From the NCBI RefSeq assembly GCF_050920415.1, contig NZ_CP169309.1: 64,000 bases of DNA; one strand, 5' to 3'. The notes under the pieces were generated by a model. It searched no databases. It saw nothing but the letters and a program-made list of their open reading frames with translations, and was not told the origin of the DNA. This DNA comes from Escherichia coli (lineage in GTDB: Bacteria; Pseudomonadota; Gammaproteobacteria; Enterobacterales; Enterobacteriaceae). The position numbers and the translations under genes are program-made. Positions 3,381-64,000 of the stretch are shown one piece after another. The first letter of the stretch is position 1; each line of letters opens with the position of its first letter.

Positions 3381-3576
3381 AGTCGCCATAAGCCTTTCCT
3401 CTGTTAAACCGCCTTCTGTTTTCCGATCCGTGCTTTTTTTTGCCGCTAATTCCATTTTTCTGCAAAATTCAACAATTATTCATAAACATCACCAATGAAA
3501 TTGTCATAAACTATTACCTGTAATTTTGGTTTTCCCGGCCAAAAATGGACAATAACCACCAGGAAAAGGAGACGGA

Positions 3577-5253
3577 ATGCATCACGCCACCCCGCTTATC
3601 ACCACCATTGTTGGCGGCCTTGTGCTCGCCTTTATCCTCGGCATGCTGGCCAATAAACTACGCATTTCTCCTCTGGTGGGATATCTGTTAGCGGGTGTGC
3701 TGGCGGGACCATTCACTCCTGGCTTTGTTGCCGATACCAAGCTCGCGCCGGAACTGGCGGAGCTGGGCGTTATTCTGCTGATGTTCGGCGTCGGTTTGCA
3801 CTTTTCGCTGAAGGATTTGATGGCGGTAAAGGCCATCGCCATTCCCGGCGCGATCGCCCAGATAGCCGTGGCGACGCTGCTGGGTATGGCGCTCTCCGCC
3901 GTGCTGGGCTGGTCGTTAATGACCGGTATCGTGTTCGGTTTATGTCTTTCCACCGCCAGTACCGTGGTGTTACTGCGCGCACTTGAAGAACGGCAATTAA
4001 TAGACAGCCAGCGTGGGCAAATCGCCATCGGTTGGTTGATTGTGGAAGACCTGGTCATGGTTCTGACGCTGGTATTGCTGCCCGCAGTAGCAGGAATGAT
4101 GGAACAGGGTGATGTGGGCTTTGCCACTCTTGCAGTCGATATGGGGATCACCATCGGCAAGGTGATCGCATTTATCGCCATTATGATGCTGGTAGGTCGC
4201 CGTCTGGTGCCGTGGATTATGGCACGCAGCGCGGCAACCGGTTCCCGCGAGCTGTTTACCCTGTCGGTGCTGGCGCTGGCGTTAGGGATTGCCTTTGGTG
4301 CGGTAGAGCTGTTTGATGTCTCCTTCGCACTCGGTGCGTTCTTTGCCGGGATGGTACTGAACGAGTCTGAACTGAGTCACCGTGCTGCCCACGATACGCT
4401 GCCATTGCGCGACGCGTTTGCGGTGCTGTTTTTTGTCTCCGTCGGAATGCTGTTTGATCCGTTAATTCTGATTCAGCAACCACTGGCGGTGCTAGCGACG
4501 CTGGCGATTATTCTGTTTGGTAAGTCATTAGCCGCGTTTTTCCTGGTGCGACTGTTTGGTCACTCTCAACGTACGGCATTAACTATCGCCGCCAGCCTGG
4601 CGCAAATTGGTGAGTTCGCTTTTATCCTGGCGGGGCTGGGGATGGCGCTGGATCTGCTGCCGCAGGCCGGGCAGAACCTGGTGCTGGCAGGGGCAATCCT
4701 GTCGATTATGCTTAACCCGGTGCTGTTCGCGCTGCTGGAGAAATATCTGGCGAAGACCGAAACGCTGGAAGAGCAGACGCTGGAAGAGGCAATCGAAGAA
4801 GAGAAGCAGATCCCAGTGGATATTTGCAACCATGCGCTACTCGTTGGCTATGGTCGTGTAGGCAGCCTGCTGGGGGAGAAATTGCTCGCCTCTGATATTC
4901 CTTTAGTGGTGATTGAGACGTCACGTACTCGCGTCGATGAGCTGCGCGAGCGCGGGGTCCGCGCAGTATTGGGCAATGCGGCGAACGAAGAGATCATGCA
5001 ACTGGCGCATCTGGAATGTGCAAAATGGCTGATCCTGACGATTCCCAACGGTTATGAAGCGGGCGAGATTGTGGCGTCTGCCCGCGCGAAAAATCCGGAT
5101 ATTGAGATTATTGCCCGCGCCCATTATGACGATGAAGTGGCGTATATCACCGAACGTGGCGCGAATCAGGTAGTGATGGGTGAGCGTGAAATTGCCCGAA
5201 CTATGCTGGAACTGCTGGAAACGCCACCGGCGGGTGAAGTGGTGACGGGGTAA
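3577..5253 (+). CDS. ybaL: CPA2-family cation/proton antiporter with C-terminal RCK/TrkA-N domain (558 aa)
   Basis: N-terminal polytopic membrane domain plus C-terminal Rossmann motif (GYGRVGS); K-12 synteny. Confidence 0.88.
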   Translation: MHHATPLITTIVGGLVLAFILGMLANKLRISPLVGYLLAGVLAGPFTPGFVADTKLAPELAELGVILLMFGVGLHFSLKDLMAVKAIAIPGAIAQIAVATLLGMALSAVLGWSLMTGIVFGLCLSTASTVVLLRALEERQLIDSQRGQIAIGWLIVEDLVMVLTLVLLPAVAGMMEQGDVGFATLAVDMGITIGKVIAFIAIMMLVGRRLVPWIMARSAATGSRELFTLSVLALALGIAFGAVELFDVSFALGAFFAGMVLNESELSHRAAHDTLPLRDAFAVLFFVSVGMLFDPLILIQQPLAVLATLAIILFGKSLAAFFLVRLFGHSQRTALTIAASLAQIGEFAFILAGLGMALDLLPQAGQNLVLAGAILSIMLNPVLFALLEKYLAKTETLEEQTLEEAIEEEKQIPVDICNHALLVGYGRVGSLLGEKLLASDIPLVVIETSRTRVDELRERGVRAVLGNAANEEIMQLAHLECAKWLILTIPNGYEAGEIVASARAKNPDIEIIARAHYDDEVAYITERGANQVVMGEREIARTMLELLETPPAGEVVTG

Positions 5254-5264
5254 GACATTGATTT

Positions 5265-5446
5265 CATTGCCGGATGCGATGCTGGCGCATCTTATCCGGC
5301 CTACAGGTGCCACCTTCCGAAGGTCGGATAAGGCGTTTATGCCGCATCCGACTGTCATTGCCGGATGCGATGTTGACACATCTTATCCAGCCTACAGGTG
5401 CCATCTTTCGTAGGTCGGATAAGGCGTTTATGCCGCATCCGACTGT
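5265..5446. repeat. Two tandem 91-bp units of REP/BIME-type palindromic repeats between ybaL and gsk
   Basis: Unit beginning CATTGCCGGATGCGATG repeats at 5265 and 5356 with a few substitutions; contains GCCGGATGCG...CGCATCCGGC-type palindromes typical of enterobacterial REP elements. Confidence 0.85.
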
Positions 5447-5461
5447 CATCAGTCCGATAAC

Positions 5462-6766
5462 TTAACGATCCCAGTAAGACTCTTCCAGACTGTCTTCACG
5501 CTCCGGTAAGCCGCGCGTTAAACGAGGTGAATGCTGGTTCAGTACCTGATAGCTCACACGGTTAGCATATTTACACACCTGCGCTAATGACGAATACGTT
5601 AACCAGGTGAATTTATGTTTGCTGGAGTTTGGTACGTTGCTACGGTGGTAGCTGTTGGCGGTAATGTCATGCAGCAATGCTGCCAGTGCGCCATCCCCCG
5701 CTCCGTTAGTGTTCATGATTTTTTCCGGCCCGCCCATGTACGGCGCAATGTGCGAATAGACACGCAACGGATTCTGACAATCCTTGTGGCGCATGGCGCG
5801 GCTAAACTCATACTGGTTAAATTCCGCGATAGCGCCCGGCAGCAGCGGATGCTGGGTTTTGCGTTTCGCTTCGTCTTCGGTAAAGCCCGCCATATACAAG
5901 CCGATTGGTCCGGCGGTACACAGCACCAGATCAACCCAGTCCAGCGCCTTGTCAGATGCCAACAACGGATCGCTTTCTCCGGTCAACGCTTCGGCCTCAT
6001 CTTCGTTCATCGCAAGGATAGAGACGTGATCTTTGAGGAATTGCTGCCACCACTGCGGATTCTCGGCAATGACAAACTTGGTGCCCAGCGTCAGCACCAC
6101 CGGTACGTTATATTTCTTCGCGTACTCAATGGCTTTCATGGTTGCTTCCGGCATGGGTTCACCCGGCTTGCAACGCACCAGATAAGAAGTGAGAACCAGC
6201 GCCGAGGCTCCGGCAATCACATCTTCCGGAATACTTTCAGCCCGCAGCTGGTTCATGTGGCCAGGGCTGATAGCAAAGGTACGTTCCCCGGACTCGCCAA
6301 TCAGCGTAAAGCAACGACCAATCGGGCCATCCACGCCTTGTAGATAGTTAAGATCGGTACGGCTGGAGGTGTTACATAGGTAACGATAGGCATAGCTGCC
6401 AATTTCAATATTGCTGCACATGACGCCCAGCAGCACCGAACGGTCGTCCGCGAGCACCGAGTAGTTGTGCATGGTGTTACCAATAGTGCCACCCGCAAAT
6501 TGATGGGTAATCAGGTTTTTCTGTTTCAGCTCCTGATAAAGTGCTTCGGCAACATCATCCTCAATCACCAGTGAATGCCCGGCGCTTAATCCATAACGCT
6601 CAATGAACTCATCATCCACTTTCGCTTCAATATCGACCAGCGTTTGATCGATACCCACTACCCAGGCAGCGCTGGTTTCGTTTTCTGGCTGGAATTGCTG
6701 AAGCAGCGGATCTCGTGCGTTTACGGGAAAATAATGTTTGGATTTACGTTTGCCGGGAAATTTCAT
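5462..6766 (-). CDS. gsk: Inosine-guanosine kinase (434 aa)
   Basis: Full-length ORF recognised as E. coli Gsk; synteny. Confidence 0.88.
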   Translation of the reverse strand: MKFPGKRKSKHYFPVNARDPLLQQFQPENETSAAWVVGIDQTLVDIEAKVDDEFIERYGLSAGHSLVIEDDVAEALYQELKQKNLITHQFAGGTIGNTMHNYSVLADDRSVLLGVMCSNIEIGSYAYRYLCNTSSRTDLNYLQGVDGPIGRCFTLIGESGERTFAISPGHMNQLRAESIPEDVIAGASALVLTSYLVRCKPGEPMPEATMKAIEYAKKYNVPVVLTLGTKFVIAENPQWWQQFLKDHVSILAMNEDEAEALTGESDPLLASDKALDWVDLVLCTAGPIGLYMAGFTEDEAKRKTQHPLLPGAIAEFNQYEFSRAMRHKDCQNPLRVYSHIAPYMGGPEKIMNTNGAGDGALAALLHDITANSYHRSNVPNSSKHKFTWLTYSSLAQVCKYANRVSYQVLNQHSPRLTRGLPEREDSLEESYWDR

Positions 6767-8836: not shown

Positions 8837-8967
8837 TACCGCCTCTTATCGATTCAACTTGTTGATAATTGTAGCGGAAAAGTGAAGAAGAAGAACTAAT
8901 TGCTGCAAGAGGTATTGCCTGAGGAGAATGAGCAGACCTGCCCGAAAGCAGATCTGCTGCGGCTTGA

Positions 8968-22380: not shown

Positions 22381-25533
<3,153 letters not shown>

Positions 25534-25550
25534 TACAACGTGTAATCACT

Positions 25551-25575
25551 AAGGCCGCGCAAGCGGCCTTTTTTA
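25551..25575 (+). terminator. Rho-independent terminator after acrB (AAGGCCGC-GCAA-GCGGCCTT then TTTTT)
   Basis: Perfect 8-bp stem, GNRA-like loop and T-run. Confidence 0.8.
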
Positions 25576-26079
25576 GATGCATAACCTACGAGTTGAATGG
25601 GGAACTGAACAATCAACTCAGAATCTCATATGAAAACCAGTATTAACTTCGCATAAAATTCATAAAAAATACTGATTGTTAGTTAATTTATATTAAGTAG
25701 CGCTAATAGATTTAATAATCCATAATCATTTAGAGGCTTTTCTTAATTATTTGCGGTAATTCTTTATTCATTCATCGGTTATTACGACATATTCAGAGCA
25801 TTCCTGGTATTAGTGTGACCAATTTCATCTGGCGATAATCTTGAAATGTTATGAACAGTTCGAGCAAACTGCTTTTACCTGCAGCGGGTTGGTGCTAGTA
25901 TGAAAAAGTGAGTCCTATCCCGCTTCCTTCCTATTTGTAATTTTTCGTAATAATGCGATGAAAACCTGCAAAGAGTGGCTTATAGTTAAGCTAACAAACG
26001 AGAGGGCAAGTCCAGGTCAGTAAGTTTTTTCCATCCCGAAAGGTGTCCGTTAGTTCAACCGCTAAGAAGGGGACGCGTT

Positions 26080-26454
26080 ATGGATGAATACTCACCCAAA
26101 AGACATGATATCGCACAGCTTAAGTTTCTCTGTGAAACCCTGTATCATGATTGCCTTGCAAACCTTGAAGAAAGCAACCATGGCTGGGTTAACGACCCAA
26201 CCTCGGCGATCAACCTCCAGTTGAATGAACTGATTGAGCATATTGCGACCTTCGCACTTAATTACAAAATTAAGTATAATGAAGACAATAAGCTCATTGA
26301 GCAGATCGACGAATATCTGGATGACACCTTTATGTTGTTCAGTAGTTATGGTATTAATATGCAGGATCTTCAAAAATGGCGGAAGTCAGGTAATCGACTA
26401 TTCCGTTGTTTTGTCAATGCGACGAAAGAGAATCCTGCGAGTTTATCTTGTTAG
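26080..26454 (+). CDS. tomB: Hha toxicity modulator TomB (124 aa)
   Basis: 124-aa ORF immediately upstream of hha. Confidence 0.85.
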
Positions 26455-26479
26455 AATTATTACAACCATGGGTAGAAGT

Positions 26480-26698
26480 ATGTCCGAAAAACCTTTAACG
26501 AAAACCGATTATTTAATGCGTTTGCGTCGTTGCCAGACAATTGACACGCTGGAGCGTGTTATCGAGAAAAATAAATACGAATTATCAGATAATGAACTGG
26601 CGGTATTTTACTCAGCCGCAGATCACCGCCTCGCCGAATTGACTATGAATAAACTGTACGACAAGATCCCTTCCTCAGTATGGAAATTTATTCGCTAA
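26480..26698 (+). CDS. hha: Haemolysin expression modulator Hha (72 aa), H-NS partner
   Basis: Starts [35 protein letters not shown]; track ORF 26234..26698 is an upstream extension. Confidence 0.9.
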
Positions 26699-26869
26699 TA
26701 AATAATTGGCTTTCGGAGCTATAACCAGCTGTTTATTAAGAATTTTATACTTTATCGCCATGAAGGCGCACCCTATGTGATCTTCATCACACAGACGTAA
26801 TGGGAACGTTCTCTTCACTGACTTTTCGTCTTACTGTGTTGCCGCATTTTCAGCAACCGGAGGTCAGTA

Positions 26870-27421
26870 ATGAGCACAGAAAAAGAAAAAATGATTGCTG
26901 GTGAGTTGTATCGCTCGGCAGATGAGACGTTATCTCGCGATCGCCTGCGCGCTCGTCAGCTTATTCACCGATACAATCATTCCCTGGCGGAAGAGCACAC
27001 ATTACGCCAGCAAATTCTCGCTGAATTATTCGGTCAGGTGACAGAGGCTTATATTGAGCCAACGTTTCGCTGTGACTATGGCTATAACATTTTTCTCGGC
27101 AATAATTTTTTCGCCAACTTCGATTGCGTGATGCTTGATGTCTGCCCTATTCGCATCGGTGATAACTGTATGTTAGCGCCAGGTGTTCATATCTACACGG
27201 CAACACATCCCATCGACCCTGTAGCACGTAATAGCGGTGTTGAACTGGGGGAACCCGTCACCATCGGTAATAACGTCTGGATTGGCGGACGCGCAGTCAT
27301 TAACCCTGGTGTGACCATTGGTGATAACGTCGTGGTAGCCTCAGGTGCAGTTGTCACAAAAGATGTCCCGGACAATGTTGTCGTGGGCGGTAATCCAGCC
27401 AGAATCATTAAAAAATTGTAA
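26870..27421 (+). CDS. maa: Maltose O-acetyltransferase (183 aa), hexapeptide-repeat family
   Basis: Left-handed beta-helix hexapeptide repeats near the C-terminus. Confidence 0.9.
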
Positions 27422-27536
27422 CCTGTTTTTCGCAACTGTTATGCAAAATCGTGGCAAATCTGTTACTTTCCCTCTACTATTCCCACGTTAAAATAGGGTG
27501 TTCCCTGGAAAGTTGCAGATACCACGAAGGCAAACG

Positions 27537-28007
27537 ATGACCGAAATACAACGCCTGCTGACCGAAACGATTGAGTCTCTGAATACCCGCGAAAAACGCG
27601 ACAACAAACCCCGCTTTAGTATCAGTTTTATCCGTAAACATCCGGGGCTGTTTATCGGTATGTACGTTGCTTTTTTTGCCACCCTGGCGGTGATGTTACA
27701 GTCCGAAACGCTGTCAGGCTCTGTCTGGCTACTGGTTGTATTATTTATCCTGCTTAATGGTTTCTTCTTTTTCGATGTCTACCCACGCTACCGCTATGAA
27801 GATATCGACGTGCTGGATTTCCGCGTTTGCTATAACGGCGAATGGTACAACACGCGCTTTGTACCTGCCGCGCTGGTTGAAGCCATCTTGAACTCTCCGC
27901 GTGTCGCGGATGTTCATAAAGAACAACTGCAAAAAATGATCGTCCGTAAAGGTGAACTGTCTTTTTACGATATTTTTACCCTCGCTCGCGCCGAATCAAC
28001 ATCTTAA
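27537..28007 (+). CDS. ylaC: Inner membrane protein YlaC (156 aa)
   Basis: Start [15 protein letters not shown] chosen for K-12 length; two hydrophobic segments. Confidence 0.7.
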
Positions 28008-28164
28008 GTTAGGGTTACATACCAGGCGTAAAGCTCTGCGCCTGGTCAAATGACAACGTTCGTTTCCACCCATCTCTTCATGAAATCCCGGCTCTACCTC
28101 CTTATCTCCTGCCAGCCTTTTTCCACAATCAGATATACTTTCCCTACACTGTGTTAATAAGGAT

Positions 28165-29721
28165 ATGCTGGTGAGAACACGACATCTGGTCGGCCTTATT
28201 TCGGGAGTACTGATTCTTTCAGTATTGCTGCCTGTCGGCTTAAGCATCTGGCTGGCCCATCAGCAGGTAGAAACATCATTTATTGAAGAGCTGAATACGT
28301 ATTCCTCCCGCGTCGCTATTCGGGCCAATAAGGTGGCGACACAAGGGAAAGATGCGCTGCAAGAGCTGGAAAGGTGGCAAGGTGCGGCCTGTAGCGCAGC
28401 CCATCTCATGGAAATGCGTCGGGTATCTTACAGTTATCGCTATATTCAGGAAGTGGTTTATATCGATAACAACGTTCCCCAGTGTTCGTCTCTGGAGCAT
28501 GAAAGCCCGCCCGATACCTTCCCCGAGCCAGGTAAAATTTCGAAAGATGGTTATCGTGTCTGGTTAACATCGCATAACGATTTAGGCATTATCCGTTACA
28601 TGGTTGCCATGGGAACGGCACATTATGTCGTCATGATCGACCCCGCTTCCTTTATTGATATCATTCCCTATAGCTCATGGCAAATTGATGCCGCCATTAT
28701 TGGCAATGCCCATAACGTTGTGATAACCAGCAGTGATGAAATTGCTCAGGGAATTATTACCAGGCTACAAAAAACACCCGGTGAGCATATCGAAAATAAT
28801 GGAATTATTTACGATATCCAGCCCTTCCCGGAGATGAATATTTCGATCATCACCTGGGCTTCAACGAAAATGTTGCAGAAAGGCTGGCATCGGCAAGTCT
28901 TTATTTGGTTACCGCTCGGGTTGGTGATTGGCCTGCTGGCAGCGATGTTTGTGCTGCGTATTTTGCGCCGTATCCAGTCACCGCATCATCGGCTGCAGGA
29001 TGCTATCGAAAATCGTGATATTTGCGTGCACTATCAGCCGATTGTCTCCTTAGCCAATGGCAAAATTGTCGGTGCTGAGGCACTGGCGCGCTGGCCGCAG
29101 ACAGACGGTAGTTGGTTGTCACCAGATAGTTTTATTCCGCTGGCACAGCAAACGGGGCTTTCTGAGCCGTTGACGCTACTGATTATAAAAAGTGTCTTTG
29201 AAGATATGGGCGACTGGCTGCGTCAGCATCCGCAGCAGCATATTTCGATCAATCTTGAATCCACCGTACTCACCTCGGAAAAAATCCCGCAATTGCTGCG
29301 TGAAATGATCAATCACTATCAGGTTAATCCCAGACAGATCGCGCTTGAACTCACTGAACGCGAGTTTGCCGATCCGAAAACCAGCGCCCCGATAATTTCT
29401 CGCTACCGGGAGGCGGGCCATGAAATTTATCTCGATGATTTTGGTACGGGGTATTCAAGTTTAAGCTATTTACAGGATCTGGATGTCGACATTCTGAAGA
29501 TCGATAAATCTTTCGTTGATGCGCTGGAATATAAAAATGTCACGCCACATATCATCGAAATGGCAAAAACACTGAAACTGAAAATGGTAGCGGAGGGAAT
29601 CGAAACCAGTAAACAAGAAGAGTGGCTACGCCAGCATGGCGTGCACTACGGCCAGGGCTGGCTCTACAGCAAGGCATTACCGAAAGAGGATTTCTTACGC
29701 TGGGCCGAGCAACATTTGTGA
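28165..29721 (+). CDS. pdeB: c-di-GMP phosphodiesterase PdeB (YlaB): periplasmic sensor domain plus EAL domain
   Basis: N-terminal TM helix, second TM, C-terminal EAL domain (GAEALARW); start may instead be the GTG at 28171. Confidence 0.85.
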   Translation: MLVRTRHLVGLISGVLILSVLLPVGLSIWLAHQQVETSFIEELNTYSSRVAIRANKVATQGKDALQELERWQGAACSAAHLMEMRRVSYSYRYIQEVVYIDNNVPQCSSLEHESPPDTFPEPGKISKDGYRVWLTSHNDLGIIRYMVAMGTAHYVVMIDPASFIDIIPYSSWQIDAAIIGNAHNVVITSSDEIAQGIITRLQKTPGEHIENNGIIYDIQPFPEMNISIITWASTKMLQKGWHRQVFIWLPLGLVIGLLAAMFVLRILRRIQSPHHRLQDAIENRDICVHYQPIVSLANGKIVGAEALARWPQTDGSWLSPDSFIPLAQQTGLSEPLTLLIIKSVFEDMGDWLRQHPQQHISINLESTVLTSEKIPQLLREMINHYQVNPRQIALELTEREFADPKTSAPIISRYREAGHEIYLDDFGTGYSSLSYLQDLDVDILKIDKSFVDALEYKNVTPHIIEMAKTLKLKMVAEGIETSKQEEWLRQHGVHYGQGWLYSKALPKEDFLRWAEQHL

Positions 29722-47995: not shown

Positions 47996-48024
47996 ATATG
48001 GGGATGTTTCCCCCACATTCAACG
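47996..48024 (-). promoter_or_regulatory. Sigma32 heat-shock promoter of lon: -35 GTTGAATG, 14-nt spacer, -10 CCCCATAT
   Basis: Minus strand reads GGCGTTGAATGTGGGGGAAACATCCCCATATACTGACG. Confidence 0.75.
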
Positions 48025-56148: not shown

Positions 56149-59085
<2,937 letters not shown>

Positions 59086-59096
59086 GAGCGGCGGTT

Positions 59097-59987
59097 ATGA
59101 TGTTTAAGCAATACCTGCAAGTAACGAAACCAGGCATCATCTTTGGCAACCTGATCTCGGTGATTGGGGGATTCCTGCTGGCCTCAAAGGGCAGCATTGA
59201 TTATCCCCTGTTTATCTACACGCTGGTTGGGGTGTCACTGGTTGTGGCGTCGGGTTGTGTGTTTAACAACTACATCGACAGGGATATCGACAGAAAGATG
59301 GAAAGGACGAAGAATCGGGTGCTGGTTAAAGGCCTGATCTCTCCTGCTGTCTCGCTGGTGTACGCCACCTTGCTGGGTATTGCTGGCTTTATGCTGCTGT
59401 GGTTTGGCGCGAATCCGCTGGCCTGCTGGCTGGGGGTGATGGGCTTTGTGGTTTATGTCGGCGTTTACAGCCTGTACATGAAACGCCACTCGGTCTACGG
59501 CACGTTGATTGGTTCGCTCTCCGGCGCAGCGCCGCCGGTGATTGGCTACTGTGCAGTGACAGGCGAGTTCGATAGCGGCGCAGCAATCCTGTTGGCTATC
59601 TTCAGCCTGTGGCAGATGCCTCATTCTTATGCCATCGCCATTTTCCGCTTTAAGGATTATCAGGCGGCAAACATTCCGGTACTGCCGGTGGTGAAAGGCA
59701 TTTCGGTAGCGAAAAACCACATCACGCTGTATATCATCGCCTTTGCTGTTGCCACACTGATGCTCTCTCTTGGCGGTTACGCAGGATATAAATATCTGGT
59801 GGTCGCCGCGGCGGTTAGCGTCTGGTGGTTAGGTATGGCCCTGCGTGGTTATAAAGTTGCTGATGATCGAATCTGGGCACGCAAGCTGTTCGGCTTCTCG
59901 ATCATCGCCATCACTGCCCTCTCGGTAATGATGTCCGTTGATTTTATGGTGCCGGACTCACATACGCTGCTGGCTGCTGTGTGGTAA
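59097..59987 (+). CDS. cyoE: Protohaem IX farnesyltransferase (haem O synthase, 296 aa)
   Basis: Starts [18 protein letters not shown]; UbiA-family motif [15 protein letters not shown]. Confidence 0.92.
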
Positions 59988-60001
59988 CACAACCTCTCTA
60001 T

Positions 60002-60029
60002 AAAAAAGGTGCTACGGCACCTTTTTTAT
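60002..60029 (+). terminator. Rho-independent terminator of the cyo operon (AAGGTGC-TACG-GCACCTT then T-run)
   Basis: Perfect 7-bp stem, 4-nt loop, T-run, 15 bp after the cyoE stop. Confidence 0.8.
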
Positions 60030-60040
60030 TGTCTGAGAAC

Positions 60041-60067
60041 AGAGATACGGCTAATAACCGTATCTCT
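60041..60067. promoter_or_regulatory. Operator-like palindrome 1 (AGAGATACGG-CTAATAA-CCGTATCTCT) abutting the -35 of the toxin-antitoxin promoter
   Basis: Perfect 10-bp arms with a 7-bp spacer; shares the ATACGG/CCGTAT core with palindrome 2. Confidence 0.6.
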
Positions 60068-60095
60068 TGACAGAGTGAGTATATGAACATAAATT
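60067..60095 (+). promoter_or_regulatory. Putative sigma70 promoter of the toxin-antitoxin operon: -35 TTGACA (60067-60072), 17-bp spacer, -10 TAAATT (60090-60095)
   Basis: Consensus -35 hexamer and optimal spacing read directly; about 75 bp upstream of the antitoxin ATG. Confidence 0.6.
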
Positions 60096-60099
60096 AATC

Positions 60100-60118
60100 A
60101 TACGGTTGATAGCCGTAT
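60100..60118. promoter_or_regulatory. Operator-like palindrome 2 (ATACGG-TTGATAG-CCGTAT) just downstream of the -10, over the predicted transcription start
   Basis: 6-bp arms with a 7-bp spacer, same half-site as palindrome 1. Confidence 0.6.
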
Positions 60119-60171
60119 TATGCATGAGATCGACTCCCTACGATTTCATTCAGTTAATCAAAGAGGTCATA

Positions 60172-60483
60172 ATGCCTGGAAAAACAGTCGCTCTACCCGA
60201 TATCGATAAAACGCTGAAAAATGCGCGGGTTGAACTCAAAACCAGTCCCGACGCCAAAAACAAACTTCGTGAAGCTGCGCAAGCCGTTGGGGTAGATTTA
60301 AGCGCTTTTATTTTGAGCGCAGCTATGGAACGCGCCGAAAGTGTGCTTGATAACCAACGTCGCCGTGAGCTTTCGAATCAAAGCTGGGAACTGATGAACC
60401 AACTCATCGCTGAACCTGCTCAACCGACGCTCGCCCTCAAGGCGTTAATGAAAAGGAAAAACAGCGATGGTCGACAAGCATGA
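60172..60483 (+). CDS. DUF1778-family ribbon-helix-helix antitoxin (TacA/AtaR/ItaR/KacA-like), 103 aa
   Basis: AAGAGG ribosome-binding site 6 nt upstream of the ATG; sequence fits the family pattern (VELKTSPDAKNKLREAAQAVGVDLSAFILSAAMERAESVLDNQRRRELSNQSWELM); overlaps the toxin start by 17 nt. The track ORF at 60106 is an upstream extension. Confidence 0.8.
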   Translation: MPGKTVALPDIDKTLKNARVELKTSPDAKNKLREAAQAVGVDLSAFILSAAMERAESVLDNQRRRELSNQSWELMNQLIAEPAQPTLALKALMKRKNSDGRQA

Positions 60484-61009
60484 AGAGATTACTCTGCCCA
60501 TAGTCCTCTCCTGTAATTATCAGTCTGATATTACTTATCCTGGGCAAAAACAGTTTGATTGCGGTAACCCTGTTATCGATAAATTTGTACGCGCATCGCT
60601 AAAGAAAAGTGTGCGTAATAGCGACTGTGCTGCTAAAGCACTTATTGACAGACAAAGTGGTGAACTGATTGGCATCTGTACTTTTACGGCATATTCGCTG
60701 GAAAAACAACGCGTTTCTGGCGTCCTTCAGGGTTCACAACCTTCAGAGATTGGTGTTGTCAGATTAGTCATGTTAGGGGTAGCGCGGAAATATCAAAAGC
60801 GGGGCTTTGGTCAGGACCTACTATGTGATTTTTTTGAACATGTAAAAATAATTCACCGGGCATTACCAATTAAAGGGGTTTATCTTGATGCTGACCCTGC
60901 CGCCATTAACTTTTATACTCGTCTCGGCTTTGTTCAGCTTTCAGCGAGGCCCAATGTTTTCGGTGCTGTACCGATGTTTTTAGCGATTCAGCATATTCTC
61001 GCGGCTTAG
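60467..61009 (+). CDS. GNAT-family acetyltransferase toxin (TacT/AtaT/ItaT/KacT-like), 180 aa; predicted aminoacyl-tRNA acetyltransferase
   Basis: N-terminal FDCG motif typical of these toxins, acetyl-CoA motif A (QKRGFGQ), C-terminal YxxLGF; ATG overlaps the antitoxin 3' end. Confidence 0.8.
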   Translation: MVDKHEEITLPIVLSCNYQSDITYPGQKQFDCGNPVIDKFVRASLKKSVRNSDCAAKALIDRQSGELIGICTFTAYSLEKQRVSGVLQGSQPSEIGVVRLVMLGVARKYQKRGFGQDLLCDFFEHVKIIHRALPIKGVYLDADPAAINFYTRLGFVQLSARPNVFGAVPMFLAIQHILAA

Positions 61010-61253
61010 ATTTTTATCGCCTCCGGCCATGGCAAGTTTTGCCTCAGCCGGAGACTGAACAGCGTTACCACTTTTGTTCAATTGCCCCCGCTTTCATCAG
61101 GTCCACATCCTTGCCTTTAATGGTTGCCGTTGCGGCAACGATCGTGGTCCTTATAGCTGCACAAGATTTTCGTTCAAATTCCGGTTTATAAAGAATAAGC
61201 AACGAATTACTGGTAAATGAATCAAGCCGGTAATCTGTAAAGTTAATATCCAG

Positions 61254-62000
61254 TCAGTTTAAGCCGAAAGGTGCAAAGCCGACCGTTTGAATAGTTTCCT
61301 TACCTGACGGACTCTTGATGTTGTACGTAACACGAAGATTGGCCACTTCGCCTAATTTATTGGTTTTGGCAAAGAGGCTATCCATGCAGGAAAAACCTTT
61401 ATCTAAAAAATTATCCCGCATTCCAGAACGGGTAATCGTGATCACCGGTAACGTATCGTCAACCGTTTTTCTGTCAATCATATCTTTTCGACAGGCGGCC
61501 ATAAAGTCTTCCGGACCAGCATAAATGTGAACACCCTTATCAAGATATTCTTTCGCTTTACTACAATCCACCTCGACATACTGACCATTGGCGTACATCA
61601 TGCCCAACCTGGACCATGCTAAATTCACACCGCGTTGCGTAGCCTGATTAAATAACGCATACGCTTTGGCATAATCCACCCGCACCTGTTCACCTTCGTA
61701 GTAGATATCCCCCAGCGCTAACGGAGCTTCTTCATCACCTTGTTTAGCGGCTAACTCGAACCATTTAATGGCTTCCGGAACGTTGGGTTTGGTATCGTAG
61801 CGGGGCTGATAATATTCCCAGCCTAACAGGCTTTGCGCGTCGACATCCCCCGACTCAGCCATTTTATGCAGTGTCCTTATCACATCGGGGGCAGGCTTTT
61901 CACTGTATATGCTGTCATACAATTCATGCGCTTTCTCGCTTGCCAGTGAACCTTGTGAGGCAATTAATAAAATAGCCAATAAACTCTTTTTATTTAACAT
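61254..62000 (-). CDS. Secreted Sel1-repeat (TPR-like) protein with an unassigned C-terminal domain of about 85 aa (248 aa)
   Basis: N-terminal signal peptide (MLNKKSLLAILLIASQGSLA|SE), about three Sel1-like repeats (e.g. LGDIYYEGEQVRVDYAKAYALFNQATQRG, LGMMYANGQYVEVDCSKAKEYLDKG); the C-terminal 85 aa has no motif I recognise. Confidence 0.75.
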   Translation of the reverse strand: MLNKKSLLAILLIASQGSLASEKAHELYDSIYSEKPAPDVIRTLHKMAESGDVDAQSLLGWEYYQPRYDTKPNVPEAIKWFELAAKQGDEEAPLALGDIYYEGEQVRVDYAKAYALFNQATQRGVNLAWSRLGMMYANGQYVEVDCSKAKEYLDKGVHIYAGPEDFMAACRKDMIDRKTVDDTLPVITITRSGMRDNFLDKGFSCMDSLFAKTNKLGEVANLRVTYNIKSPSGKETIQTVGFAPFGLN

Positions 62001-62416
62001 AAATAACCTTTATGCATCCATCACTGTATTTTTCAATATACCTAACCACCAAACATCCACTTCATGAATAAATACACAGCCATAACAACCTCAGGTAATA
62101 AGCAAACATTTAAGCTGAAGCAGAATAACCAGCACCGCCAACACCTCTATTTATTGCGATAAAATAACACCATCCTTTAATAAAAAATCACACGCTCATC
62201 AACAAATCCGAAAATAATATCATTCGTGGCAGGATAAAATCAGGCGAGCTTTTCATTTGTTATATTTAACGCGCAAAGTATTAATGGCAAGAATACGAGA
62301 GAAGCGCATGCCTGACGTAAAAATCACGCTCTTATGTAATATTTACTCATTAACACTCTGTTTACCCAACATGCGCTCCGCACTACACTATGTGGGCAAT
62401 TTTTTAAGAGGTGGTA

Positions 62417-63781
62417 ATGAACGATTATAAAATGACGCCAGGTGAGCGGCGCGCGACCTGGGGTTTAGGGACCGTATTTTCATTGCGCATGCTGGGCATG
62501 TTTATGGTACTGCCGGTTCTAACTACGTACGGTATGGCACTGCAAGGTGCCAGTGAAGCATTAATCGGTATTGCCATTGGTATTTATGGCCTGACTCAGG
62601 CCGTTTTTCAGATTCCGTTTGGCCTGCTCTCAGACCGTATTGGTCGCAAACCATTAATTGTCGGCGGGCTGGCGGTGTTTGCTGCCGGTAGTGTTATCGC
62701 TGCGCTTTCCGACTCAATCTGGGGAATTATTCTGGGCCGGGCGTTACAAGGTTCTGGAGCGATTGCCGCTGCCGTTATGGCGCTACTTTCTGATCTCACG
62801 CGCGAACAGAACCGTACCAAAGCGATGGCGTTTATCGGCGTGAGTTTTGGTATTACCTTCGCCATTGCGATGGTGCTTGGCCCAATCATCACTCACAAAC
62901 TTGGGCTGCATGCGCTGTTCTGGATGATCGCTATTCTGGCAACAACCGGCATTGCGTTGACCATTTGGGTGGTGCCCAACAGCAGCACGCACGTACTTAA
63001 TCGTGAGTCCGGGATGGTGAAAGGCAGTTTCAATAAAGTGCTGGCGGAACCGCGGCTGCTGAAACTCAACTTCGGCATTATGTGTCTGCACATGCTGCTG
63101 ATGTCGACGTTTGTTGCCCTGCCCGGACAGTTGGCTGATGCGGGATTCCCGGCGGCTGAGCACTGGAAGGTCTATCTGGCGACGATGTTAATCGCCTTTG
63201 GCTCGGTTGTGCCTTTCATTATCTACGCGGAAGTTAAGCGCAAAATGAAGCAAGTCTTTGTCTTCTGCGTCGGGCTGATCGTCGTTGCGGAAATTGTGTT
63301 GTGGAACGCACAAACGCAGTTCTGGCAACTGGTGGTCGGCGTGCAGCTTTTCTTTGTGGCGTTTAATTTGATGGAAGCCCTCCTCCCCTCGCTTATCAGT
63401 AAAGAGTCGCCAGCCGGTTACAAAGGTACGGCGATGGGCGTTTACTCCACCAGCCAGTTTCTTGGCGTGGCCATTGGCGGTTCGCTGGGTGGCTGGATTG
63501 ACGGCATGTTTGACGGTCAGGGCGTATTTCTCGCTGGCGCAATGCTGGCCGCAGTGTGGCTGGCAGTCGCCAGTACCATGAAAGAACCGCCGTATGTCAG
63601 CAGCTTGCGCATTGAAATCCCATCGGACATTGCCGCAAACGAGACGTTAAAAGTGCGTTTGATGGAAACTGCGGGTGTCAAAGAAGTGTTGATTGCAGAA
63701 GAAGAACATTCAGCTTATGTGAAAATCGACAGCAAAGTGACGAATCGCTTTGAGGTTGAACAGGCAATTCGTCAGGCATAA
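62417..63781 (+). CDS. yajR: MFS transporter YajR with C-terminal cytoplasmic domain (454 aa)
   Basis: Starts MNDYKMTPGERRATWGLGTVFSLRMLGMF; MFS motif GLLSDRIGRKP; the GTG at 62411 is an alternative start. Confidence 0.88.
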   Translation: MNDYKMTPGERRATWGLGTVFSLRMLGMFMVLPVLTTYGMALQGASEALIGIAIGIYGLTQAVFQIPFGLLSDRIGRKPLIVGGLAVFAAGSVIAALSDSIWGIILGRALQGSGAIAAAVMALLSDLTREQNRTKAMAFIGVSFGITFAIAMVLGPIITHKLGLHALFWMIAILATTGIALTIWVVPNSSTHVLNRESGMVKGSFNKVLAEPRLLKLNFGIMCLHMLLMSTFVALPGQLADAGFPAAEHWKVYLATMLIAFGSVVPFIIYAEVKRKMKQVFVFCVGLIVVAEIVLWNAQTQFWQLVVGVQLFFVAFNLMEALLPSLISKESPAGYKGTAMGVYSTSQFLGVAIGGSLGGWIDGMFDGQGVFLAGAMLAAVWLAVASTMKEPPYVSSLRIEIPSDIAANETLKVRLMETAGVKEVLIAEEEHSAYVKIDSKVTNRFEVEQAIRQA

Positions 63782-63795
63782 AAAACGAGGCGAAT

Positions 63796-63890
63796 TGCCT
63801 GTTGCGCTACGCTTTTCAGGCCTACAAAGTTCCTGAGTGACAAATCTTTGTAGGCCGAATCAGACGTTCATGCCGCATCTGACATGAACA
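63796..63890. repeat. REP-type palindromic repeats between yajR and the downstream convergent gene
   Basis: TGCGCTACGCTTTTCAGGCCTACA and CTTTGTAGGCC...GCCGCATCTGACATGAAC units, including a 10-bp inverted repeat GCCTACAAAG/CTTTGTAGGC. Confidence 0.8.
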
Positions 63891-63908
63891 AAGCGCAGGT
63901 TGTCGCGA

Positions 63909-64000
63909 TTAATCGCGGAAGTTTTTGAACTGGAACGGCTGACCCAGATCGCCACCACGTACCATCGCCATGACAGCCTGCAAATCATCACGAGATTTGC
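63909..64000 (-). CDS. 3' end of a convergent CDS truncated by the window end; by K-12 synteny the position of yajQ
   Basis: Minus-strand frame ends ...DLQAVMAMVRGGDLGQPFQFKNFRD then stop at 63909-63911; only about 30 codons visible. Confidence 0.5.
   Translation of the reverse strand, partial: KSRDDLQAVMAMVRGGDLGQPFQFKNFRD

Follow-up and report, generated by a model that had tools for sequence, protein, structure and literature searches.

What occupies the site between cyoE and yajR in this Escherichia coli genome, and did it arrive there or was it lost elsewhere? In the window (by which we mean the whole 64-kb stretch of DNA analysed) cyoE stops at 59987 and the yajR ATG lies at 62417, leaving a gap of 2,429 bp which measures 148 bp in a K-12-type genome, much as an earlier note on this DNA had put it (about 2.4 kb and 150 bp). 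That note saw three genes inserted into a K-12-like core. The best explanation overall, in which we have good confidence, is a known toxin-antitoxin operon, itaRT, beside an old Sel1-repeat locus that is broken in this genome, with the history of the site proposed below.

Extent, occurrence and make-up of the extra DNA

Comparison with a K-12-type genome (L002) by BLAST and MAFFT placed the extra DNA at 60031 to ~62337 (2.3 kb), the final ~25 bp on the right being ambiguous, since the edge of the islet shows weak homology to the K-12 filler AGCATTAGAAACATATCCCTCTCGA; an initial MAFFT placement of this filler was misleading and was corrected by local alignment across six taxa. The left edge is marked by the cyoE terminator hairpin, core DNA which is found in K-12-type genomes and whose stem carries compensatory changes in Pseudocitrobacter and the related locus L017, and the yajR upstream region, common with K-12-type genomes, likewise falls outside the islet (table below). 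Outside the islet the window is colinear with K-12 (~97% identity), apart from two short intergenic repeat differences. GC content is 43.2% in the islet and averages 51.2% over the window, a value as low as that of the islet being reached by 0.7% of equal-sized windows, all others of which are in the tomB-hha area, and GC3 of its three genes is 0.37-0.45 against 0.59-0.68 in flanking genes, which bears out the claim that it is AT-richer than its flanks. Across 5,426 complete E. coli genomes it was present at the cyoE-yajR site in 1,367-1,369 (~25%; whole block in 1,367, Sel1 part in 1,369), and the site was empty in 4,053, all with one and the same junction. It is absent from K-12 and thus accessory in E. 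coli, as had been supposed.

The ORFs of at least 40 aa in 59988-62416 are itaR, itaT and the Sel1 gene plus short unassigned frames, mostly overlapping those three, and annotated genomes show just these three genes in the gap. The DUF1778/GNAT pair and convergent Sel1 gene of the earlier note are thus present, but the 248-aa Sel1 ORF (61254-62000) is only the front part of a 311-codon gene. The absence of an integrase, transposase, tRNA or convincing repeat was confirmed: the ORF list holds no integrase or transposase in the islet, ARAGORN found no tRNA in 58000-64000, and a repeat search found no convincing direct repeat around the whole islet, matches of ~20 nt at 70-74% being judged chance. 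The islet therefore has neither the integrase, transposase or relaxase nor the tRNA/tmRNA insertion site of a classical genomic island or mobile element. An Rfam scan of 59800-62600 at E <= 1 gave nothing that passed the threshold; its one hit, to STnc50 over the cyoE terminator, scored 23.5 bits against a gathering score of 55 and was rejected.

Features of the cyoE-yajR gap (positions in the window)
Feature	Position	Strand	Basis or remark
cyoE intrinsic terminator hairpin, ATAAAAAAGGTGC-tacg-GCACCTTTTTTAT	60000-60029	+	perfect 13-nt inverted repeat
Whole accessory islet, absent from K-12-type genomes	60031-62337		BLAST and MAFFT against L002; composition
itaRT cargo module, 1,053 bp	60032-61084	+	junctions against Escherichia sp. 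E4930, E. albertii, L029
Predicted ItaR-ItaT operator 1, palindrome	60041-60067		core ATACGG-N7-CCGTAT at 60045-60063; putative function
Predicted itaRT sigma-70 promoter: TTGACA, 17-nt spacer, TAAATT	60067-60095	+	10/12 matches
Predicted operator 2, ATACGGTTGATAGCCGTAT	60100-60118		inverted repeat just downstream of -10 hexamer
itaR antitoxin, 103 aa, TacA1/DUF1778 family with ribbon-helix-helix DNA-binding part	60172-60483	+	HS identity, Pfam
itaT GNAT toxin, 180 aa	60467-61009	+	HS identity, PDB 7BYY match, Pfam GNAT domains
Hairpin between convergent itaT and Sel1 genes	61021-61053		inverted repeat; -21 kcal/mol, z = -3.0
Sel1-repeat gene, 311 codons, pseudogene here	61065-62000	-	probable signal peptide, three Sel1 repeats, C-terminal beta-sandwich
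Sel1 recombination tract	61200-61800	-	sliding identity: 97-98% to E. albertii, 79-93% to common E. coli allele
Nonsense codon 249, CGA to TGA	61254-61256	-	CGA or CGG there in EC42405, HS, CE10, E. albertii
AT-rich spacer upstream of Sel1 gene	62001-62337		90% over 381 bp to E4694 yajR-Sel1big spacer
yajR upstream region, core DNA	62338-62416	+	motif TAATATTTACT..TTAAC.C..TGTTTACCC conserved across genera

The gap contains two unrelated pieces at one variable site, 60032-61084 with itaRT and 61085-62337 with the Sel1 gene and its upstream spacer. Within the islet, only the itaRT sub-module looks like inserted cargo when junctions are aligned: in Escherichia sp. E4930 the slot is empty and the sequence uninterrupted (TTTTTTATTGCCCCC / TTTTTTATTGCCCCCAC), and in E. 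albertii and L029 other cargo sits at exactly the insertion point of itaRT. The module contains the promoter with its candidate operators, itaR, itaT and the hairpin, and also supplies the end of the Sel1 gene (four codons and the stop); it is bordered on both sides by ATTG (60028-60031 and 61081-61084), 4 bp being short enough for coincidence and too short to separate target duplication, microhomology and chance. Its left junction TTTTTTATTGTCTG is common to E. coli and Pseudocitrobacter. The Pseudocitrobacter sequence downstream of itaT is unrelated to that of E. coli, and itaRT may therefore have entered on more than one occasion.

The Sel1-repeat gene

The 55 bp around the TGA at codon 249 of the Sel1 gene are identical in 10 of 18 genomes with the same allele, and for an identical sequence RefSeq records a pseudogene, citing the internal stop. 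With this codon the gene is therefore a pseudogene in the window's genome, and since truncation costs the protein its last four strands and an invariant cysteine, the product is most likely dead. The protein shows three Sel1 repeats (Pfam; PF08238), the alpha-solenoid-forming units of which a Sel1-like repeat (SLR) protein has several, and lacks the intact frame. Judged by eye its N-terminus is a probable Sec signal peptide, and in the AlphaFold model (pLDDT 88) the C-terminal domain is an IrmA-like beta-sandwich held by conserved cysteines, a likeness of fold only; C146, C170, C205 and C280 are invariant across the family. The small secreted beta-sandwich IrmA of uropathogenic E. coli (5EK5) is 18% identical and stands alone, whereas here the fold is one domain within a larger Sel1 protein, and no common function is to be assumed from it. 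Secreted Sel1-like-repeat proteins such as E. coli c5321 (4BWR), Helicobacter HcpC (1OUV) and Legionella LpnE (6DEH) share the Sel1 helical hairpins and a signal-peptide-like N-terminus, but the window's protein differs from them in having only three repeats, in its fused C-terminal beta-sandwich, which belongs to no Pfam family, and in being truncated. The Sel1 protein is probably a periplasmic or secreted protein-binding factor. Its sole PADLOC match was weak and partial (E = 2.5e-4), none of the domains passing individually, and a literature search for the Sel1 locus tags, or for cyoE/yajR with itaRT, returned nothing relevant. STM0438 is given as a Salmonella virulence-database gene in one paper, and no tie to the Sel1 genes was seen here. 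The C-terminal tail of the protein changes with each change in the neighbouring cargo slot, reading EQKW, HPKP, HQKL or KNPPE.

The window's Sel1 allele is rare (18 genomes) and mosaic, with an E. albertii-like tract of ~600 bp and a dS of 0.16 to E. albertii against 0.41 to HS. The spacer upstream of the gene is just 60-67% identical to the HS allele and, by its alignment, is derived from the one which related species have ahead of another, larger Sel1 gene. A remnant of that larger gene itself was sought in the Sel1-yajR spacer by tblastn and none was found, the spacer being homologous to the region upstream of it. A broader reading is that this Sel1-plus-IrmA-like family, found in the cyoE-yajR gap across Escherichia, Salmonella and Pseudocitrobacter, is a fast-evolving secreted factor for host or envelope interaction, whose alleles are kept or exchanged across species by selection; itaRT would then be just one of a number of cargoes able to replace each other in a site-specific slot downstream of the cyoE terminator. 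We regard this as doubtful; it would fit the dS between alleles, the E. albertii-like tract and the rewriting of the tail.

History of the site

The neighbourhood of the gap differs between relatives. Salmonella has cyoE-Sel1-Sel1-ORF-yajR, Pseudocitrobacter and L017 have cyoE-itaRT-Sel1-Sel1big, Escherichia sp. E4694 has the same four genes as Pseudocitrobacter (itaRT-Sel1-Sel1big), Escherichia sp. E4930 has the Sel1 pair without itaRT, and E. albertii has other cargo plus Sel1. A 325-aa E. albertii gene and a 343-aa Salmonella gene at the locus are unrelated to each other and to any family. As Sel1 genes lie in the outgroup gaps and the empty E. coli sites all have one junction, the locus appears to be an old resident lost in a single event, and the K-12 empty site is most likely one old deletion; the direction of this change was read by comparing five outgroup lineages. 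The proposed insertion into a K-12-like core is thus retained only for the itaRT sub-module, the islet as a whole being probably resident and the K-12 state a deletion.

The steps can be set out as follows. A Sel1 gene pair between cyoE and yajR would be ancestral to Escherichia and relatives, itaRT would have entered the slot directly behind the cyoE terminator, the larger Sel1 gene would then have been lost in E. coli, and one later deletion of everything would have produced the K-12-type site. Ordinary homologous recombination in the core genes on either side may carry both states between E. coli lineages, and for this no mobility gene is needed.

The contrary view, that the whole 2.3-kb block is a recent horizontal islet inserted as a unit into a K-12-like gap by an unspecified mechanism, seems to us improbable. 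Its low GC (43%) and GC3 and its restriction to about a quarter of E. coli genomes speak for it, as do the relatives of ItaT on Citrobacter and Serratia plasmids (63-77% identity) and the homologues of ItaRT that Serratia, Rahnella and Buttiauxella carry in other genomic surroundings, but Sel1-family genes fill the exact gap in Salmonella, Pseudocitrobacter, E. albertii and both Escherichia sp. E4694 and E4930, the left junction of itaRT is shared with Pseudocitrobacter, the Sel1-yajR spacer has its homologue upstream of Sel1big in E4694, a sole empty-site junction runs through 4,053 genomes, and the block as a whole is without mobility genes, tRNA or flanking repeats. Near-identical ItaT hits filed under plasmids were set aside, these records being 1.2-4.8 Mb and evidently chromosomal sequence. 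A foreign origin would also agree with GC and GC3 being low in all three genes, although AT-rich accessory loci of long standing are able to retain these values. As we propose for this locus, what looks like an AT-rich islet and has no mobility genes can be an old resident lost from the reference strain and not a newcomer.

The ItaR/ItaT pair and its control region

The toxin-antitoxin pair, which the earlier note had treated as anonymous, is on its sequence identity the already-characterised ItaR/ItaT of E. coli HS and BL21(DE3), a type II GNAT/DUF1778 system (Wilcox et al. 2018, PMC6125619) with a solved structure (7BYY; PMC7367177); the system is thus already known, and published work implies that K-12 lacks it. 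The HS locus likewise lies between cyoE and yajR and agrees in gene order, promoter region and the 17-nt overlap of the two genes, which are on the same strand with the antitoxin first. ItaR is identical to its HS counterpart at 100 of 103 residues (97%) and ItaT at 176 of 180 (98%), the differences being three in ItaR (A6V, T7A, V11I) and four in ItaT (Q131R, A151T, T160R, A163V). ItaT matches PDB 7BYY with E = 1e-115, and in this alignment the acetyl-CoA motif Q110-x-x-G113-x-G115 (QKRGFG, residues 110-115) and Y150 are intact, the roles of G115 and Y150 being known (PMC7367177); V36, I37, F40 and M102 of the substrate pocket are retained as well. ItaR, for which RefSeq annotates an identical sequence, matches Pfam TacA1 (PF08681, E = 1.3e-17, residues 19-96), with a weaker NikA-like RHH match besides. 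The pair thus has the gene order and overlap, GNAT motif with tyrosine and RHH antitoxin of a GNAT/DUF1778 (TacAT-type) system, together with near-identity to a known member at the same locus. Matches of ItaR, ItaT and the Sel1 protein in NCBIfam were all far under curated cut-offs and gave no equivalog name, and the PADLOC defence models gave no match for ItaR or ItaT. In annotation the pair is to be named ItaR/ItaT, and the Sel1 gene marked as a pseudogene.

In HS, ItaT acetylates Ile-tRNA-Ile, ItaR neutralises it and the complex represses the promoter (PMC6125619, PMC7367177, PMC9177977); the operon was cloned from that strain and tested in MG1655. By extension from the HS proteins, the dimeric GNAT toxin of the window would transfer an acetyl group from acetyl-CoA to the alpha-amino group of charged Ile-tRNA-Ile, with Val- and Met-tRNA as poorer substrates, ribosomes would stall at Ile codons and growth would stop, and ItaR binding would neutralise the toxin, the ItaR-ItaT complex repressing its own promoter. 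Three other GNAT/RHH toxin-antitoxin pairs, TacAT of Salmonella, AtaRT of E. coli O157:H7 and KacAT of Klebsiella, share the two-gene architecture, fold, aminoacyl-tRNA acetylation and autoregulation by the complex. However, ItaT has only distant similarity to the KacT and AtaT structures (E = 1e-5 to 1e-9), its preferred tRNA is Ile and not Gly or initiator Met, and it belongs to a different clade from these toxins (clade B in PMC9177977).

It could be argued that itaRT is decaying like its Sel1 neighbour, leaving an inactive toxin or a functionally antitoxin-only remnant in an islet of dead DNA: the adjacent gene is a pseudogene, itaT of L017 has shrunk to a 79-aa remnant, and A151T adjoins the catalytic Y150. 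We consider this still less probable than recent insertion of the block, as both frames are intact, the overlap, ribosome-binding site, promoter and palindromes are conserved, every residue shown to matter is present, homologues have A, T or V at position 151, dN/dS is 0.10 for itaT and 0.29 for itaR, and identical proteins (WP_000227787.1 and WP_001353405.1) recur in CE10 and further E. coli genomes examined, at least three in all. Least probable of all is that pair and Sel1 gene form one functional unit, such as an addiction module guarding the Sel1 locus or a three-gene defence or host-interaction system, since against their near-constant co-occurrence in E. coli, their adjacency also in Pseudocitrobacter, L017 and E4694 and the last four Sel1 codons contributed by the itaRT module stand E4930, E. 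albertii, Salmonella and L029, which have Sel1 genes but no itaRT, five other genera and plasmids, which have itaRT homologues but no Sel1, convergent genes which are not co-transcribed, the lack of a meaningful PADLOC match, and a Sel1 gene broken here beside an intact itaRT.

The known operon, as we read it, also carries candidate control elements. The hairpin between itaT and Sel1 has no U-tract and is a likely transcript end. Upstream of itaR, the palindrome of operator 1 ends where the -35 hexamer starts, base 60067 being common to both; its core is invariant in HS, Pseudocitrobacter and L017, with neighbouring bases variable, and the palindrome has 2 matches in the 64 kb against 0.07 expected. 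A 172-bp upstream fragment drives ItaRT-repressible transcription (PMC6125619) and the predicted promoter falls inside it; the palindromes are absent from that report, whose test covered the whole fragment only. Repression may act via the two ATACGG-N7-CCGTAT palindromes, which bracket the TTGACA-17-TAAATT promoter, and these conserved candidate sites offer a concrete, testable proposal for the ItaR-ItaT operators.

The cyoE-yajR gap

In the window 2,429 bp lie between the end of cyoE (59987) and the ATG of the annotated yajR (62417), against 148 bp in the K-12-type laboratory genome. BLAST aligned the two up to 60030 and again from 62338, with 25 K-12-type bases unmatched; in a local alignment of six taxa these bases showed weak homology to the right-hand end of the islet (the extra DNA), and the region upstream of yajR was common to all taxa from 62338 on. 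From these breakpoints and this alignment the accessory segment is 60031 to about 62337, so the segment of the earlier note is real, though slightly shorter than the 60030-62416 first proposed. A 3-kb query across the gap was at least 80% covered in 1,367 of 5,426 complete E. coli genomes, including E. coli HS (source of the characterised ItaR/ItaT pair), and matched at the cyoE and yajR ends only in the rest; the Sel1 half as query matched 1,369 genomes, and the K-12-type junction was found unbroken, at 96.8-100% identity, in 4,053. Given the occupancy counts and the unbroken junction, the site exists in E. coli in essentially two states, of which the empty one has a single junction, and this presence/absence pattern bears out the accessory status.

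The earlier note had also called the segment AT-richer than its flanks and free of integrase, transposase, tRNA and flanking repeats, and both descriptions held. GC content is 43.2% vs. 51.2% for the window, a value as low being found in 0.7% of equal-sized windows (the remaining ones all around tomB-hha), and GC3 is 0.37-0.45 in the three islet genes vs. 0.59-0.68 in cyoB, cyoE and yajR. Searches of the islet region for a tRNA, an Rfam family or a mobility ORF found none, and no repeat of any weight flanked the whole islet. The remainder of the window was colinear with HS and K-12 (~97% identity), save two intergenic repeat-element differences. Elsewhere in the window, equal AT-richness occurs only in the acrB-tomB-hha-maa area (minimum 42.5% GC per 2.3-kb window).

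Positions of features in the window
Feature	Position	Strand	Basis
ybaL-gsk intergenic region	5254-5454		
hemH-adk spacer	8914-8966		
AT-rich acrB-tomB-hha-maa area	about 24450-28800		
lon-clpX spacer	about 48001-48013		
cyoE stretch compared	59100-59999		
ATTG, left and right module ends	60028-60031 and 61081-61084		
DNA parting the E4930-type halves	60032-61084		
Palindrome 1, core ATACGG-N7-CCGTAT	60045-60063		repeat search
Predicted sigma-70 promoter, good match (TTGACA, 17 nt, TAAATT)	60067-60095	+	sequence
Palindrome 2, core ATACGG-N7-CCGTAT	60100-60118		repeat search
Hairpin between convergent itaT and Sel1 genes	61021-61053		
Sel1 gene frame, TGA at codon 249	61065-62000	-	
Motif upstream of yajR	62330-62366		

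Origin of the islet

A genomic-context look-up placed Sel1 homologues between cyoE and yajR wherever both flanks were visible, often together with a second, larger Sel1 gene.

Gene order at the locus in other genomes
Genome	Order	Detail
Salmonella enterica (L023)	cyoE, Sel1 (489 aa), Sel1 (503 aa), unknown ORF, yajR	343-aa ORF at 3483-4514 between yajR and the two Sel1 genes; no family match
Pseudocitrobacter genome	cyoE, itaR, itaT, Sel1 (308 aa), Sel1 (494 aa)	stretch read ends without yajR
Metagenomic enterobacterial relative (L017)	cyoE, itaR, itaT remnant, Sel1 (308 aa), Sel1 (478 aa), yajR	itaT cut to 79 aa (4984-5220), itaR intact: antitoxin-only state
Escherichia sp. E4694	cyoE, itaR, itaT, Sel1 (311 aa), Sel1 (499 aa), yajR	
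Escherichia sp. E4930	cyoE, Sel1 (312 aa), Sel1 (499 aa), yajR	without itaRT
E. albertii (L015)	cyoE, unrelated 325-aa ORF, Sel1 (311 aa), yajR	ORF at 5048-6025, in the slot held by itaRT in E. coli
Rare E. coli variant (L029)	cyoE, amidohydrolase-like ORF and fragments, Sel1 (313 aa), yajR	third cargo kind, 4443-6134: 315-aa ORF and fragmentary ORFs

The larger Sel1 gene appears to have been lost cleanly from E. coli, since the 380-bp Sel1-yajR spacer of the window is 90% identical to the E4694 spacer preceding that gene. The outgroup states and the one empty junction suggest that the K-12 empty state is most likely a single old deletion, from which it follows that the islet would most likely be ancestral and eroding rather than recently imported. 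Occupied and empty states may be exchanged through homologous recombination in cyoE and yajR, which can swap either state, so mobility genes would be unnecessary. Divergence from HS and K-12 increases beside the islet, cyoE being 100% identical to about 59400 and 93-97% beyond, and yajR 94-95%. Over the initial ~300 bp of cyoE examined, identity was 100% with HS and 99% with E. albertii, falling from about 59400 to 93-97% and 89-94%, respectively; this sharp change resembles a recombination breakpoint.

E4930 has the cyoE terminator joined directly to the Sel1 3' end (GGGTTTTTTATTGCCCCCAC), and in the window the two halves are parted by 1,053 bp. Both ends of this itaRT module carry ATTG, four bases being too few to decide between target duplication, microhomology and chance. 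Other cargo occupies the identical point in E. albertii and the rare E. coli variant, and the last four or five residues and stop codon of Sel1 are set by the cargo (EQKW, HPKP or HQKL; KNPPE with an empty slot). The left junction is common to the window and Pseudocitrobacter, and the sequence past itaT differs. Plasmids of Citrobacter and Serratia carry relatives of ItaT (63-77% identity), and in five genera such relatives lie in different chromosomal surroundings, which argues that the mobile part of the islet is the toxin-antitoxin module. The horizontal acquisition proposed in the earlier note thus applies at most to this 1-kb module, but not to the islet as a whole, given the Sel1 genes at the site in outgroups and the single empty junction. 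Two Citrobacter freundii plasmids of ~97-99 kb (NZ_CP145667.1 and NZ_CP056338.1) encode a GNAT/DUF1778 pair with a toxin sharing 77% identity with ItaT, and such plasmids are a possible vehicle for past movement of the module. For the 325-aa E. albertii ORF no Pfam hit is recorded, and neither NCBIfam nor PADLOC gave a match; another E. albertii genome has it broken into two ORFs, and ~50 bp at its cyoE-side end are shared with the amidohydrolase cargo.

The ItaR/ItaT pair and its regulatory region

Pfam agreed with the gene families first assigned to the islet, giving TacA1/DUF1778 for ItaR, GNAT domains for ItaT and three Sel1 repeats for the remaining protein. The 180-aa GNAT protein matched PDB 7BYY (E = 1e-115), the inactive ItaT(G115D) mutant produced for crystallisation (PMC7367177); the window protein has the native G at residue 115. 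With 176 of 180 ItaT and 100 of 103 ItaR residues identical to HS at the same locus, the pair is the known ItaR/ItaT system, which BL21(DE3) carries in virtually identical form (PMC6125619). HS ItaT is toxic by itself, with normal growth when ItaR is co-expressed (PMC6125619); it acetylates Ile-tRNA-Ile, with weaker activity on Val- and Met-tRNA (PMC6125619, PMC7367177), AUU and AUC codons become ribosome pause sites in its presence, and its toxicity is counteracted by peptidyl-tRNA hydrolase (PMC9177977). All residues of shown importance are kept (G115, Y150, V36, I37, F40 and M102), the variant (Q131R, A151T, T160R and A163V relative to HS) recurs in other E. coli genomes, e.g. CE10, and comparison with HS gives dN/dS values of 0.10 (itaT) and 0.29 (itaR); the window itaRT is therefore intact and most likely active.

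Two palindromes with a common core bracket the predicted promoter. The core pattern occurs twice in 64 kb vs. 0.07 times expected, and is unchanged in HS, the Pseudocitrobacter genome and the metagenomic relative, with variable bases nearby. A 172-bp promoter fragment is repressed by the HS ItaR-ItaT complex, not by ItaR alone (PMC6125619), and the palindromes, which that paper does not mention, are proposed here as candidate ItaR-ItaT operators. This proposal and the anatomy of the cargo slot are small additions to the known ItaRT system.

The Sel1 gene and minor differences elsewhere

The Sel1 gene, 311 codons long in HS, is interrupted in the window by a CGA to TGA change, and RefSeq labels the identical sequence 'internal stop'. 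Strain EC42405 has an intact, otherwise near-identical allele; the 55 bases surrounding the stop are the same in 10 of the 18 genomes with the window allele and differ at one base in the other 8. By eye, the N-terminus looks like a Sec signal peptide. In the AlphaFold model (pLDDT 88) residues 40-179 form a helical solenoid and residues 187-310 a beta-sandwich; across 21 homologues, four cysteines and several residues of the C-terminal part do not vary. Because the stop removes the final four strands and C280, the truncated product is unlikely to fold, and the gene reads as a pseudogene, a dead copy of an old, uncharacterised Sel1-repeat gene.

The allele is rare, the Sel1 half as query matching at 98% or above in only 18 genomes and at 80-90% in the other 1,351. 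Identity to HS is 97-98% in itaR and itaT, 86% in the Sel1 gene and 60-67% in the spacer upstream of it. At synonymous sites the Sel1 gene diverges by 0.41 from HS vs. 0.16 from E. albertii, the latter below the 0.24-0.27 by which cyoE and yajR of the window differ from E. albertii. By sliding identity, 61200-61800 is closer to E. albertii (97-98%) than to the common E. coli allele (79-93%), and the Sel1 5' end and spacer resemble neither, a mosaic that indicates interspecies recombination at this gene.

Elsewhere, the ybaL-gsk region holds two tandem REP/BIME-like units of ~95 bp (CATTGCCGGATGCGATG...GCATCCGACTGT) for which the 125-bp K-12-type spacer gives no alignment. At 53 bp, the hemH-adk spacer is shorter than the 157-bp one of the K-12-type genome, which has a GC-rich repeat element (CCCTCTCCCCGAGGGGGCGAGGGGAC) that the window lacks. 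Between lon and clpX the difference belongs to the comparison strain, since an IS4-like IS421-family element is present there and none in the window. The motif upstream of yajR is kept from E. coli to Salmonella and a Pseudocitrobacter-like relative, and is possibly a yajR promoter or regulator site.
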